Origin: Thermoplasmata archaeon
GTDB lineage: Archaea; Thermoplasmatota; Thermoplasmata; RBG-16-68-12; JAGMCJ01
NCBI GenBank assembly: GCA_023136265.1
Contig: JAGLRN010000002.1
Coordinates: 667-64,666 of the forward strand
Length of the DNA: 64,000 nucleotides
Direction: 5' to 3'
Every line of letters starts with the position of its first letter. Positions within the stretch are counted from its first letter, which is position 1. The position numbers and the translations under genes were made by a program. Below, piece by piece: positions 19,032 to 51,836 of this stretch. Under the pieces are notes generated by a model. The model worked only from the letters and a program-made list of their open reading frames with translations. It had not been told where the DNA came from and ran no database searches.

Positions 19032-19381
19032 ACGGAGGTGAAACGGAGTGGGTACGGAGGAGTTACGGAGGAGAAACGGAGGATCTCTAGTGGGACATAG
19101 GAGAACCATAGAAGGAGCATAGGAGGCAAAGGTTTATGAGGGGTAACAGGCGGGCTCGGAGCTCATTCTATCACGGAGACACAGCGAATAGCAAGGATCC
19201 TGCAAGGAATAGCAAGGGAGGAGCAAGGATTCGGCAAGGAACCTGCAAGCGACCTGCAAGGATCTAGCAAGGATTCGGCAAGGATGTCTATGGTAAGTGT
19301 ATGGTAGGTCCCTAGGATGTCACAGGAAACCTTAGCGGGACTTTAGGGAAACCTCAGGAGGAGCCTAGGATTTGCCTATGA
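19032..19381 (+). repeat. About 11-bp-phased short-motif array I
   Basis: ACGGAG at 19032/43/54/65/76; CATAG at 19096/107/118; GCAAG x9 from 19191 to 19278; CCTAGGA-like units to 19375. Confidence 0.9.
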
Positions 19382-19575
19382 TTTGTCGTTCATCATATTG
19401 AAGGGCGACATCTTCTACGAGATGCCTCCTATGCGAGGAAAGCCAGCGCCCGCGGTGCGGCGCGCTCATGTTCACCGCAGCGGAGAGGTGGGAACGGAAG
19501 GATGCCTAGGCAAACCGATGAACTCCCACAAGAATTATAACGTCCCATACGAATCGTGACGGCGAGGGATAGCGG

Positions 19576-20367
19576 TTGAGGTGTCACAAGAGAATCATCC
19601 TTCTCGCAGTCTGCATCGTTGTCACATCTCTTCTCTTGCCGACCACGAGTGCTGGTCTCCTCCATTTTCGGGAAGTCACGGGCTCACTAATCGTCCAGAG
19701 CGACACGAACATCTCGTTGATGGTTGTGGATGTCTGGATATTCCTCAGGGAAGAGTATTCTGTGGGCTACGGCAACTTCACTCTGTACAACCGGGACAAT
19801 GAAACGGCTTCATTCACTCTGGGCTTCGATCCAGGGGGATCTATCGACACGGCAGCCGCCAAAGTGGATAACTCCTCTGTTCCTTTGCGTTGGGGCCGTC
19901 TTGACAACACCGAGATGCCCGTGTTCGACACTTCTATCGAGGCGATGAGCTTCCAGAATGTCTCGGTTTCTTGGATGGCGAGGTCGAAGTACTGGGACTA
20001 CTCCCGGAATCCCTTCATATCTGGAGTGGAGGCATGGGAGGCCCGCTACGACATAATAGGAACTCGAGCCTGGCCCGATGGCATAGAGAATGTGACGGTG
20101 AGGTTCGTCACCGACTGCGAGGCCTTCCGTGACCCCCGCTCACCTGTGCCTCCGACTCAGAGGTTCCTCGACGACAACGGGAGGGAGGTTCTGCTTTTCG
20201 AACGCGGGGGGCAATTCACTGAGATTGGCCTCGTGGTCACGGGAGACACGATCGAGGTTTGGGATCGATGGTGTTTTTTAGGACTTCTCATAGCAGCACT
20301 CGTTGGTCTCGCTGTTGTGTGGATAAGGAGAACGCATACCAGTGGCAAGCGTTTCTTCAGGCGGTAA
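19576..20367 (+). CDS. Secreted/membrane-anchored hypothetical protein
   Basis: Signal peptide, beta-rich domain, C-terminal TM plus basic tail. Confidence 0.7.
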   Translation: MRCHKRIILLAVCIVVTSLLLPTTSAGLLHFREVTGSLIVQSDTNISLMVVDVWIFLREEYSVGYGNFTLYNRDNETASFTLGFDPGGSIDTAAAKVDNSSVPLRWGRLDNTEMPVFDTSIEAMSFQNVSVSWMARSKYWDYSRNPFISGVEAWEARYDIIGTRAWPDGIENVTVRFVTDCEAFRDPRSPVPPTQRFLDDNGREVLLFERGGQFTEIGLVVTGDTIEVWDRWCFLGLLIAALVGLAVVWIRRTHTSGKRFFRR

Positions 20368-20574
20368 ACAACGAAACACGGCTCTTGATCGGATATGGCA
20401 TGGGATTCGCGGTGCTTTTCATCAGCACAGCATTACTCTGCAAGTTGTCGGACTCCAATGAGAACCACGACATTCCTAGCCCCCGTATCTTCACCAGCTC
20501 CGCGACCAGCTCTGAGGAGGCAATAATTGCCGCCATAAAAACCTTAAATATCCTCGAACACGATGGACTCTCGG

Positions 20575-20647
20575 GCCGAGGTGACAGAGCGGCCAATGTG
20601 ACCGCCTGCAGAGCGGTTTTGTGGGGGTTCGACTCCCTCCCTCGGCA
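20575..20647 (+). tRNA. tRNA-Cys(GCA)
   Basis: GCCGAGG/CCTCGGC acceptor, ACCGC-CTGCAGA-GCGGT anticodon arm, TTCGACT T-loop. Confidence 0.96.
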
Positions 20648-20661
20648 CTTTGGTGAAAATC

Positions 20662-48658: not shown

Positions 48659-48708
48659 TAGTTCGCCCATTTGTTTTGGGGCAGATTAAGATTTCGGATT
48701 CGGTAGCC

Positions 48709-51168
48709 CTACTCGATGTACTTCTCCGGATCCTCTTGGAATCTGTTCATGCAGCCCACCGCGCAGAAGTAGTACTTCTTGCCCTTGTACTCGTACTCCC
48801 CCGCGGCGGTCTCCGGATTCACTTCCATCTTGCAGATGGGGTCTATAGCCACTTGTTTCACCTCCTCTTTCTGCGGTCGAGGTGGTTCGTGCACTTCCTG
48901 CTCGACTCTCAACCGCTTGACTTCTGGAACATACCCTTTCAATAATCGTGAGTTCGTGACGACGGAAACGGAGCTGAAGGCCATTGCTGCGGCGGCGAAA
49001 ATGGGAGCGAGAAGAATGCCGAAGCTCGGATACAGGATTCCGGCGGCGATTGGAATGCCCGCCGCGTTGTAGGCGAATGCCCAGAAGAGATTCTGCTTTA
49101 TCTTGGACATCGTCTTCGAGCTCAGTTCGAAAGAGGCCACGACATCCAACGGATCGTCCCGCACGAGGACTACGTCGCCGGATTCGAGGGCCACATCGGT
49201 CCCACCGCCGATTGCGATGCCCACGTCCGCCTGAACAAGCGCGGGGGCGTCGTTGATTCCGTCTCCCACCATGCCCACCTTTTTCCCTTCCCGCTGGAGT
49301 CTGGCTATCTCGGACGCCTTGTCCTGCGGGAGAACCTCATACAGGACTCTATCGATCCCGAGCGTGTGCCCGACGGCTTTGGCGGTCCGCTCGTTGTCTC
49401 CAGTGATCATGATGACCTCGATTCCCTTCTTCTTCAGCGCCCTGACGGCTTTGGCGGAGTTGTCCTTCAGGATGTCAGCAACAGCGATGGCGCCAGCAAC
49501 CTGTCCGTTTCTTGCCACGACGACCACCGTCTTGCCTTCACCCTCCATCCTCTGGAGATCGTGCTCGACATCCGCGGTCGCGATGCCGTTGGTCTCCATG
49601 AGCCTCCTGTTCCCCAGTAGGATCTGCTCGTCTCGGGTGCCCGCCTTGACCCCCATCCCTGGCAGCGCCTCGAAGGTTTCAGGATGCTCGAACGAAACCG
49701 CCATGTCCTTCGCTTTCTTGAGTATGGATTCTGCCAGCGGATGCTCGGAACCCGCCTCAGCAATCGCTGCGAGCCTGAGGACCTCTGCCTCGTTCGAGTG
49801 AGGTAAGGACATGATATCGGTGACCTCTGGCTCCCCCATCGTCAGGGTTCCAGTCTTGTCGAAGACCACGGTGTCGAGCTTTCCCGCGGTCTCGAGAGCC
49901 TCGCCCCCTTTTATGAGGATCCCGTACTTCGCGCCGAGCCCAGTGCCGACCATTATCGCAGTGGGCGTCGCAAGGCCAAGTGCGCAGGGACAGGCGATGA
50001 CCATGACCGAGATGAAAATCAGGAGGGAGAATGTGAACGCCGTCAGGCCCGCTCGAGGCGGCCAGATGTTCGCTCCGAGGAGGAGCCAGAAGAGAAGCGA
50101 GAAAACCGCGATCAGTATGACCGCCGGTACGAAATAGGAGGCGACCCTATCCGCGATCCGCTGAATCGGTGCTTTCTTCTCCTGCGCCTCCTGGACCATC
50201 TTGACTATCTGGGCGAGCATCGTCTCTTCGCCCACCTTCCTCGCTTCCATCTTGAACGTTCCGGTCTTGTTTATCGTTGCGCCGACAACGGCATCGCCAG
50301 CGGACTTCTCCACCGGAATGCTCTCTCCTGTGACCATGGATTCGTCAACGGATGAGCTTCCCTCCGTAACGATCCCGTCCACCGGGATCTTCTCCCCTGG
50401 CCTCACCCTGATGATGTCACCGACGACGACTTCCTCGACTGGGATCGCCCGCTCAACTCCGTCTCTGACGACAAGGGCGGTCTTCGCCTGCAGCTCCATC
50501 AGTGTCCTTATCGCCTGCGATGTTCCGCTCTTCGCCTTTGCCTCAAGGTAGTTGCCAAGGAGTATCAGACCTATTATCATCGCGGCGGTATCGTAGTAGA
50601 CAGCGTGAGTTCCAAACAGCGAGGGCAAGAAGGTGACGACGACGCTGTAGAAGTAGGCGGCGCTCGTTCCGACAGAGATGAGGGTGTCCATGTTCGCCGT
50701 TCGGTTCTTGATCGCCTTCACGGTTCCCCTGTAGAACTTCAAGCCAGGGTAGAACTGCACGGAGGTTGCCATCAAGAAGAAGATGAAGTTGCGTATGAAC
50801 AGGCTCGTGGCATCTTCCGGGAACGATAGGAACTCCCATGCCAAGCCGACGGCGAGCATGGGAAAGCCGACGGCGAGCGCGAAGATTGTGATTCTCTTCT
50901 TGTACTCCATGTCCTTTCGATAGAACTCCTTAGCCTCCTCTCGACCCGCCTCGATGCCAACGTACTGGTAGCCAGCGTCCTCGATCGCCTTGCCTATGGT
51001 TTCGAGGCTGGTTACCTTGGGATCGTAAATGACCGTGGCCCGCTCAAGCGCGAGGTTGACGACTCCGCTCTTGGTTCCCTCAACCTTGGAAAGGGCGGTC
51101 TCGATCGTGTTGGCACACGTCGCACAGGTCATACCGCCAAGTCTGATCGTCTTCTTCTCGAGCGCCAT
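48709..51168 (-). CDS. copA: Cu(+)-type P1B ATPase with N-terminal HMA and C-terminal YHS/TRASH domain
   Basis: GMTCATC, TGES, CPC, DKTGT, GDGIND, YN, DPICKM...YYFC. Confidence 0.95.
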
Positions 51169-51263
51169 TCCAACTTGTCTAAGACGAGACGTGTTTAAAA
51201 GGTTGTCCGATGACGAGTGTCAAGCGAGTTGCATAACAAGGCCGATCACAGGTGGATGAGAAG

Positions 51264-51336
51264 TGGGCTCAGGGAGATTCGAACTCCCGACCTTCACCAT
51301 GTCAAGGTGACGTCATAACCGCTAGACTATGAGCCC
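51264..51336 (-). tRNA. tRNA-Val(GAC)
   Basis: GGGCTCA acceptor, TCACC-TTGACAT-GGTGA anticodon arm, GTTCGAAT. Confidence 0.97.
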
Positions 51337-51500
51337 GCGGTGCACCAATATCCCCAGAGTTTCATAAGGTTTGTGCTTCAGTCTGAGATGCACTGTAGGC
51401 TGCCGGGACGTGGTTCCTCCGCATGAGAGAGCCGACTATTGCCCTGCTCAAGCATTCCGAAGGACTATTGAAGGGGTTGACAGACATCGGAACGGGGAGA

Positions 51501-51836
51501 AGCGAAGAGAAGCATAGCCCGAGCGAAGAAACAGCGAAGGATAAGCGAGGTCAAAGCGAAGGATAAGCGAAGGAACCGCAAGGAAGACGCTACTTAAGCA
51601 TTCCGAAAAGGCATTATACGCCACTGCGCGGGCGGGAACGGAGAAACAACGGAGGAATACGGAGCCGGGAACGGAGCGGAACGGAGAATCAACGGAGAAC
51701 CATCGGAGAAGAACGGAGCGGGAACGGAGAAACAACGGAGCGAGCATAGGGCGAGCTTACAGAACGGACGGAGAATTCCCGGAGGAATCTCGGACGGAGA
51801 ACGGAGAAACAACGGAGCGGGAACGGAGAACGGAGG
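51501..51836 (+). repeat. About 11-bp-phased short-motif array II
   Basis: AGCGAAG-like units 51501-51588; about 17 (A/C/T)CGGAG units 51638-51835. Confidence 0.92.

Follow-up and report, generated by a model that had tools for sequence, protein, structure and literature searches.

Two helically phased, block-structured arrays of short purine-rich motifs in divergent intergenic regions of an uncultured Thermoplasmata archaeon, predicted to be binding-site platforms around local promoters

What are the short purine-rich motifs that recur at every helical turn in two intergenic regions of an uncultured member of the Thermoplasmata found in cold-seep and marine sediments? We analyzed a 64,000-nucleotide (nt) stretch of its chromosome (the window), so that our results cover 64 kb of one genome and a handful of related loci. 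A sequence-only reading had proposed that the two longest noncoding stretches of the window each hold an array of motifs repeated about every 11 bp. This is indeed the case: the longest intergenic regions, at 18932-19575 (644 bp) and 51337-52024 (688 bp, beyond a tRNA gene), each contain one array of 11-nt units, here called array I and array II. As also proposed, both lie between divergent genes. Array I is flanked by an HD-domain gene (- strand) and a gene for a 263-residue membrane protein (+ strand), and array II by tRNA-Val (-) and an aminotransferase gene (+). We tentatively read both as iteron-like clusters of binding sites on the DNA, in phase with the helix and placed around local promoters, a predicted function to which we assign a probability of about 0.4.

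The phased arrays are real and far beyond chance. Tandem Repeats Finder called period 11 at both sites, and within the 64 kb a lag-11 self-identity of ≥0.55 (99-nt windows) was reached only at 18972-19395 and 51637-51849. At other lags (non-multiples of 3), self-identity peaked at 0.40-0.45 across the window. We compared each intergenic region with 1,000 dinucleotide-preserving shuffles, and the expected enrichment of the period over shuffled DNA held at both. The lag-11 maximum was 0.646 in region I (shuffled, 0.353 ± 0.030; z = 9.7) and 0.606 in region II (shuffled, 0.361 ± 0.029; z = 8.3), with 0 of 1,000 shuffles reaching the observed value in either case. Unitigs from an independent cold-seep DNA run (X1) tile positions 18000-20700 with 0-1 mismatches, and an independent metagenome-assembled genome (MAG; L001) carries the same array I in register. 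Together, these two observations exclude an assembly artifact.

By direct reading, array I (19028-19390) consists of five ACGGAG(G) units, three CATAG(G/A)AG units, a 56-bp spacer, nine GCAAGG(A) units, and approximately nine mixed 11-mers (TATGGTA, CCTAGGA, CACAGGAAA, and others) that keep GGA/AGG at the same phase. In array II (51496-51836), approximately eight GCGAAG(G) units are followed by a 50-bp spacer and approximately 17 (A)ACGGAG units. Across both arrays, the 11-nt blocks are built from the unit types ACGGAG, CATAGGAG, GCAAGGA, GCGAAGGA, and YCTAGGA (Table 1). The proposed 11-bp repetition therefore stands, but the spacing is not perfectly regular, as some units of array II measure 10 or 12 nt and two near its end only 7 nt. 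Every motif type is purine-rich on the + strand, where purines make up 65% of array I and 74% of array II; the GC content is 0.52 and 0.57, respectively. Two motif families, ACGGAG and the GC(A/G)AAG type, are common to both arrays on the same strand and in opposite block order, 32 kb apart, as the sequence-only reading had it. Comparison of the non-repeat parts of the two loci revealed no shared sequence. In an approximate wedge-model calculation, the GCAAGG block of array I and, in array II, the first ACGGAG block fall within the top 0.5% of the window's 126-bp windows for predicted curvature.

Table 1. Features of the two array loci (window coordinates). BRE, TFB recognition element; PWM, position weight matrix.
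Feature	Coordinates	Strand	Remark
BRE/TATA of the HD-domain gene (leaderless)	18953..18966	-	Kept in four species; constant neighbor of array I
Array I block a: five ACGGAG(G), exact 11-nt spacing (19032, 19043, 19054, 19065, 19076)	19028..19086	+	CGGAG kept in L001, L002, and L003
Array I block b: three CATAG(G/A)AG, phase shared with block a	19094..19126	+	ATAGGAG invariant in all four species
Array I BRE/TATA-like box, CAAAGG/TTTATGAG	19127..19140	+	PWM score 10.1; putative promoter
Array I non-repeat spacer segment	19158..19196	+	100% identity, window versus L001
Array I block c: nine GCAAGG(A); one unit of 10 nt, rest 11	19186..19287	+	Core conservation test
Array I block d: about nine mixed 11-nt units (TATGGTA x2, CCTAGGATGT, CACAGGAAAC, CTTAGCGGGA, CTTTAGGGAAAC, CTCAGGAGGAG, CCTAGGATTTG, CCTATGATTTG)	19288..19390	+	About 90% identity to L001
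About 590-bp extra segment including the whole of array II	51385..51974		Absent from the tRNA-Val/aminotransferase spacer of L148 and L149/L150
Direct repeat AAGCATTCCGAA, first copy	51450..51461	+	One copy ahead of each array II block; direct reading
Array II block a: about eight (A)GCGAAG(G), final unit GCAAGG	51496..51585	+	Core conservation test
AAGCATTCCGAA, second copy, running into BRE/TATA-like box AAAAGG/CATTATAC (51606-51619)	51597..51619	+	PWM score 11.8; putative promoter
Array II block b: ten (A)ACGGAG, spacings of 10-12 nt	51634..51745	+	Core conservation test
Array II block c: six or seven CGGAG units, irregular spacing (11, 15, 7, 11, 11, 7)	51764..51836	+	Direct reading
BRE/TATA of the aminotransferase gene	51980..51993	+	150 bp past the end of array II

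Inside a block, the 6-nt core hardly varies from unit to unit, whereas the 4- to 5-nt spacers are almost random. Core columns take 1 of 21 mismatches in the GCAAGG block of array I (P = 1.7e-6), 2 of 33 in the ACGGAG block of array II (P = 4e-9), 0 of 9 in the ACGGAG block of array I (P = 8e-4), and 8 of 25 in the GCGAAG block of array II (P = 0.019); anchoring the units on the core introduces some bias into these values, limited by the fact that the units are consecutive. Strain variants agree, with none of the four inside the GCAAGG block (19229, 19265, 19189, and 19244) falling in the 6-nt core. Spared cores next to nearly random spacers argue for a motif read at fixed spacing rather than for a neutral minisatellite, and the pattern fits predicted sites for a sequence-specific factor.

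Protein-coding and CRISPR (clustered regularly interspaced short palindromic repeats) explanations had been discounted by the sequence-only reading, and our data bear this out. A period of 11 nt does not suit a coding repeat, and strain variants skip 34, 53, 77, and 88 nt, which are not multiples of 3. Only short open reading frames (ORFs) cover the arrays, of 33-43 residues on either strand over array I and of 52-99 residues, antisense, over array II; one ORF of 81 residues has no relative among 5.8 billion proteins. CRISPR repeats must be at least 23 nt long with unique spacers, whereas the units here are 11 nt (a 6- to 7-nt core and a 4- to 5-nt spacer). In the literature, we found no description of such arrays in Thermoplasmata.

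We then asked how the arrays behave in relatives, which were found through the HD-domain protein for locus I and through aminotransferase homologs (77-82% identity) for locus II. Motif turnover with conserved phasing, which the sequence-only reading had suggested looking for, was seen for array I in L001, L002, and L003 (reduced in the last two), but array II is absent from L147-L150. L001, whose HD protein is 97% identical, has the full array I, unit for unit. L001 and the window agree at 91% of positions in the GGAG and CAAGG cores, at 64% of non-core array positions, and at 88-90% in the flanking intergenic DNA, a difference that indicates unit turnover. L002 (90%) has five NCGGAGC units at 11 bp and L003 (82%) three ACCGGAG units; in each, ATAGGAG follows and the GCAAGG part is missing. 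The first core comes in species-specific flavors (ACGGAG in the window, GYGGAG in L001, ACCGGAG in L003). In four species, with protein identities as low as 82%, the HD gene thus has upstream of it a module of three to five CGGAG units at 11 bp plus ATAGGAG, which persists although the gene on the opposite side changes. Only this module, beside the HD-gene promoter, appears to be older. The gene to the right of array I differs between the window and L001, and synteny breaks exactly at the end of the array; near window position 19400 it is lost right after CATATTGAAG, with different surface or secreted protein genes beyond. A further contig (L004) ends at the array I site, probably by an assembly break. 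HD-protein relatives at ≤49% identity showed neither synteny nor arrays.

At locus II, the synteny of the Cu-ATPase gene, tRNA-Val, and the aminotransferase gene is intact in the relatives, and both promoters are recognizable. Array II is nevertheless absent from the syntenic locus in three related species (L147-L150), where the spacer is just 233-467 bp, and we detected no lag-11 array anywhere in the 13-21 kb available for each of these four loci. In L147 (9760-9900), the tRNA-Val/aminotransferase spacer holds a different insert where array II would be, with two copies of GGCA(A/T)TAGCTGTAGCCGAA, and this spacer appears to be a hotspot of sequence gain. Strains vary as well. Contigs of several metagenomes join array positions with skips of 33, 34, 48, 53, 77, 88, 75, and 199 nt, which are copy-number variants. 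The arrays are accessory, young or fast-growing, unstable, and lineage-restricted.

To look for promoters, we hand-curated a BRE/TATA weight matrix from 17 boxes of window genes and tRNAs. A scan of both intergenic regions at a score of ≥10 yielded only two further sites, both on the + strand and 20-30 nt ahead of repeat blocks; about 0.27 such promoter-like matches are expected by chance. Transcription is predicted to start around 19162 from the box in array I, at the head of the GCAAGG block, and around 51641 from the box in array II, at the first ACGGAG unit. The array I box differs very little from the promoter of the gene at 5611 and is weaker in L001 (score 8.1). In L002 and L003, the matrix found no + strand promoter ahead of the ancestral CGGAG block, and this result, taken with the persistence of the CGGAG module in four species, favors a DNA-level element tied to the HD promoter. 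The distance from the array end to the next TATA box, 148-150 bp at both arrays, was taken as chance and is not kept in L001. A scan for sigma-70 promoters and intrinsic terminators was uninformative for an archaeal host.

All RNA runs available to us consist of unstranded contigs. Metatranscriptome contigs of one run (X25) cover 19122-19295 and 51510-51572 at gene-like depths, with DNA carry-over possible, and an 'RNA' run (X20) gives even coverage of nearly everything, as DNA would. A 137-nt insert at 19382-19518 with adapters at both ends is identical in X17 and X20 (labeled 'metatranscriptomic'); it may be a discrete small RNA just past array I or a duplicate from the polymerase chain reaction, and its + strand fold has a z of -1.5. 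Neither array has a significant RNA fold on either strand (+ strand z = +0.54 and -1.10), and the non-repeat tails are mildly structured (z ~ -1.5). At gathering score, Rfam returned three tRNAs only and no array match. A permissive scan placed RsmY over 19193-19344, the GCAAGGA block, at 17.9 bits (E = 0.052; gathering score 57) and otherwise returned noise. No oligo-T terminator was found past either array.

Similar arrays occur elsewhere. Four CGGAG motifs at 11-bp spacing were found at ≥120 metagenome loci from very diverse organisms, many of them block-structured with changing motifs. In Bacteroidetes-like loci, direct reading places CGGAG arrays just upstream of TTTG/TAnnTTTG promoters of unrelated genes. 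Array orientation relative to the downstream gene is weakly biased among the metagenome matches listed (38:20; the gene calls were crude). In viral contigs, GCAAGG triplets occur in 37, ≥99, 50, 17, and 20 distinct (de-replicated) contexts at periods of 8, 10, 11, 13, and 14, which makes them two to five times commoner at 10-11 bp than at 8, 13, or 14 bp; the variable-spacer class likewise peaks at 10-11 bp. This excess argues that helical phasing of such hexamer arrays is a general DNA-level phenomenon. The window arrays belong to this general class of helically spaced hexamer arrays. They share the GCAAGG hexamer, CGGAG at 11 bp, and block structure with the iterons and operator arrays of phages and prokaryotes, and differ from the metagenome loci in being of single orientation and multi-motif, as opposed to the 18 inverted double arrays among the matches listed.

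In all 18 of these inverted loci (L040, L044, L050, L061, L074, L083, L089, L092, L103, L120, L122, L127, L135-L137, and L144-L146), a CTCCG arm precedes a CGGAG arm (18:0). The arms are 5-20 bp apart and lie between divergent genes of unrelated function, with ~45 units in L135 and L146. We looked for a gene association of these bacterial arrays and rejected it, as the flanking genes are unrelated. Inverted double arrays may be an undescribed, widespread class of bacterial intergenic element. Separately, contigs from gut and other metagenomes (L037, L046, L056, L058, and L131) carry four to six 11-nt repeats CATCGGAGAAG inside long ORFs for related proteins. A change in the number of these units would shift the frame, so the repeats may serve phase variation or mark a domain boundary.

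Among characterized systems, parC of plasmid R1 carries five 11-bp iterons on each side of a promoter. Every iteron is bound by one dimer of ParR, a ribbon-helix-helix (RHH) protein that binds cooperatively to this curved DNA (PMC2241845). Array I resembles it in having 5 + 3 units, a promoter-like box, and 9 units, with the largest block predicted to be curved. The window sets, however, differ from each other in sequence, reach 17 units, and are chromosomal and archaeal; no parM- or parR-like genes follow the arrays, which are not conserved in relatives. Operators of OmpR/PhoB-type winged-helix proteins (pho boxes and the sites of PhoP and ArcA) consist of a hexamer or heptamer plus a 4- to 5-bp spacer, head to tail, every 10-11 bp at promoters. 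Their direct-repeat layout is the same as that of the window arrays, but these operators have 2-5 repeats and conserved regulons, whereas the archaeal window arrays have 5-17 repeats and several motifs, with no candidate regulator encoded beside them. Borg repeats of Methanoperedens are intergenic, have unit lengths that are not multiples of 3, show a purine bias on one strand, turn over rapidly, and are absent from close relatives (PMC9879509). The window arrays are similarly archaeal, intergenic, purine-biased on one strand, and fast-evolving. Borg repeats, though, are perfect copies of diverse unit lengths on extrachromosomal elements, whereas the window arrays combine conserved cores with random spacers, always at ~11 nt, in a housekeeping region of the chromosome.

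How might the arrays work? In the reading we prefer, the cores GGAG, CAAGG(A), and GAAGG(A), one helical turn (~11 bp) apart, would all face the same side of the duplex, and the arrays would be multivalent platforms on which one sequence-specific protein, or a few, would bind cooperatively. A direct repeat of a hexamer and a 5-nt spacer is the layout of known cooperative DNA binders, which supports a platform. The predicted curvature of the two largest blocks and the position of CGGAG arrays ahead of promoters in Bacteroidetes-like loci also speak for it. The arrays sit in what appear to be enlarged divergent promoter regions. Array I would be tied to the HD-domain gene promoter and surround an internal promoter-like box, and array II would surround another. 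Binding could coat or bend ~100-350 bp and so tune or insulate local transcription. The reader is thus presumed to be a protein acting on DNA, and its effect to be local regulation or architecture. The cooperative readers envisaged by the sequence-only reading are plausible, given conserved cores and random spacers; the partition, origin, or gyrase system that it attached to them lacks support. Several points weigh against a DNA-binding platform. No candidate binding protein is encoded adjacent to either array, and six motif types call for several proteins or for one with loose specificity. A duplex reader does not require purine richness on the same strand, which a single-strand (RNA) reader would explain. 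The 7-nt units of array II break the phase, the two promoter-like boxes point into repeat blocks, the core-versus-spacer test carries the anchoring bias noted above, and the relatives without array II show that its flanking genes work without it.

Some of these points would suit a reader of RNA. In that account, + strand RNAs transcribed from their own promoters, unstructured and exposing 9-17 GGA/GGAG motifs, would titrate a Csr/Rsm-like RNA-binding protein or the anti-Shine-Dalgarno end of 16S rRNA. We consider this rather unlikely. In its favor, GGA is common to all six motif types on one strand, the sole two non-gene promoter-like boxes both precede blocks on that strand, the lack of significant structure would leave the motifs accessible, and the only Rfam match, weak as it is, is to RsmY. 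CAAGGAU also agrees with the core of the CsrA consensus from systematic evolution of ligands by exponential enrichment (SELEX). The Csr/Rsm sponges CsrB, RsmY, and RsmZ resemble the arrays in carrying many GGA motifs on one strand, with a promoter-like box upstream here. They differ in their hairpin loops, since the GGA motifs of the window are not in the loops of a stable fold; the regular 11-nt spacing and the archaeal host set the arrays further apart, and their transcription is only putative. A match to a sponge family model was rejected, as the RsmY score is far under the gathering score. CsrA is not known in archaea, although we made no search for it here. The X25 contigs over parts of both arrays would fit transcription, but their depth is that of ordinary genes, with no enrichment, and neither these nor the evenly covering X20 contigs carry strand information. 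There is also no terminator, and the ancestral CGGAG block of L002 and L003 lacks a + strand promoter. A reader of GGA alone would not keep 6- to 7-nt block-specific cores, and an RNA function gives no reason for 11-nt spacing. Somewhat less likely still are near-neutral hypervariable minisatellites, in which a purine-rich 11-mer is expanded by slippage or unequal exchange and blocks are locally homogenized, with only incidental effects on promoter spacing. Lineage restriction, the turnover of non-core positions against L001, the commonness of block-structured 11-bp arrays in unrelated metagenome contigs, and the similar strand bias and turnover of Borg repeats (PMC9879509) all suit such repeats, as does copy-number polymorphism, the mark of a variable-number tandem repeat (VNTR), which appears as whole-unit skips in several metagenomes. 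Neutral decay, however, should strike all 11 columns alike, and here mismatches avoid the core columns. Nor would it account for two motif families recurring on the same strand 32 kb apart, for the CGGAG/ATAGGAG module kept in four species, or for the excess of viral arrays at 10-11 bp.

The remaining explanations are far less probable. A chromosome-maintenance element, whether origin-type iterons, a partition centromere, or a gyrase loading site, is very unlikely. It would draw on the likeness of phased 11-bp iterons with a promoter between sets to R1 parC, on the divergence of gene orientation at both sites, and on gyrBA, which the sequence-only reading placed about 3 kb from array I; gyrB does start 2.8 kb beyond the array, and this is the sole link to gyrase. 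The same reading had suggested comparing array positions with GC skew and with orc1/cdc6 and seg/par genes, and neither comparison bore fruit. The skew switch follows gene orientation only, and our gene-family scan of 30 window genes, about half of the window ORFs, turned up no Orc1/Cdc6, ParA/SegA, ParB/SegB, ParM, RHH, or Rep-like gene. The origin recognition box (ORB) consensus (≤3 mismatches) had 11 matches versus 15.9 expected, none of them in the arrays, which are not AT-rich. An origin should also be conserved at syntenic sites, where array II is absent and array I reduced or truncated in close relatives. Plasmid iterons were rejected, with no BLAST match in PLSDB (72,556 plasmids). As to a centromere, the repeat sets of array I do flank a promoter-like box, but the sets differ in motif and the promoter is a prediction. 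The array neighbors (the HD-domain hydrolase, the 263-residue membrane protein, CysRS, GyrB, the Cu-ATPase, and the aminotransferase) include no genes for a binder or a motor. Array loss and reduction in relatives and unit-number variation among strains are not the behavior of an essential chromosome element; the arrays are accessory elements and not a conserved chromosome-maintenance system. It is equally improbable that they are the cargo or scar of a small mobile insertion carrying promoter-plus-repeat modules. The ~590 bp missing from the otherwise identical spacer of L148 and L149, the synteny break with L001 exactly at the right end of array I, and AAGCATTCCGAA ahead of both array II blocks would suit an insertion. 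Direct reading nonetheless gave no convincing terminal inverted repeats or target duplication, the scanned window genes include no transposase or integrase nearby, and the non-repeat parts of the two loci are dissimilar.

The surrounding window is a housekeeping chromosome segment whose DNA is present across many cold-seep metagenomes. Its genes include those for ribosomal protein L10/P0, Spt5, two FtsZ proteins, CysRS, GyrB/GyrA, PPDK, a Cu-ATPase, and cytochrome c maturation. The two FtsZ paralogs are adjacent on the minus strand (15155-16264 and 16409-17548), beside the HD-domain gene. Two zinc ribbons, one double and one S27a-like, occur together with a SAP domain, which is a DNA-binding motif, in a 533-residue protein (8305-9906), a possible nucleic acid binder encoded away from the arrays. 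Cytochrome c assembly genes, a multiheme c-type cytochrome, and cytochrome b (window 54643-57318 and 58928-59881, and L149 16978-18643) hint at respiratory or extracellular electron transfer in this cold-seep lineage. The only other strong tandem repeat of the window is a 9-nt coding repeat, TCCTTCTTC x 5, at 11484-11530 in the region of the ribosomal stalk-protein gene, an ordinary acidic-tail repeat. An apparent third long noncoding gap (26.7-27.7 kb) is really an overlooked ORF of 372 residues.

Archaeal cis-regulatory and chromatin-organizing DNA is poorly charted, and that of uncultured cold-seep Thermoplasmata is uncharted. If the arrays are neutral satellites, their main value is negative, as they are neither origin nor centromere. 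In practical terms, they also cause assemblies of these MAGs to break, as probably in L004, which ends at the array. With 5-17 constrained motifs lined up on a single face of the helix, they are strong candidates for platforms of high-avidity binding and offer concrete bait for an unknown archaeal DNA- or RNA-binding factor. More speculatively, and with rather low odds, they may belong to an undescribed Thermoplasmata system in which one cooperative reader of GGA cores on phased platforms would be either a filament protein that nucleates on the arrays and organizes or insulates chromosome domains or an archaeal Csr/Rsm-like protein with its sponge RNA, made from the internal promoters. If so, the GGA-core sites and their reader would co-evolve fast, as the species-specific core flavors suggest. 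The rapid turnover of the arrays is a natural experiment in the co-evolution of site and reader.

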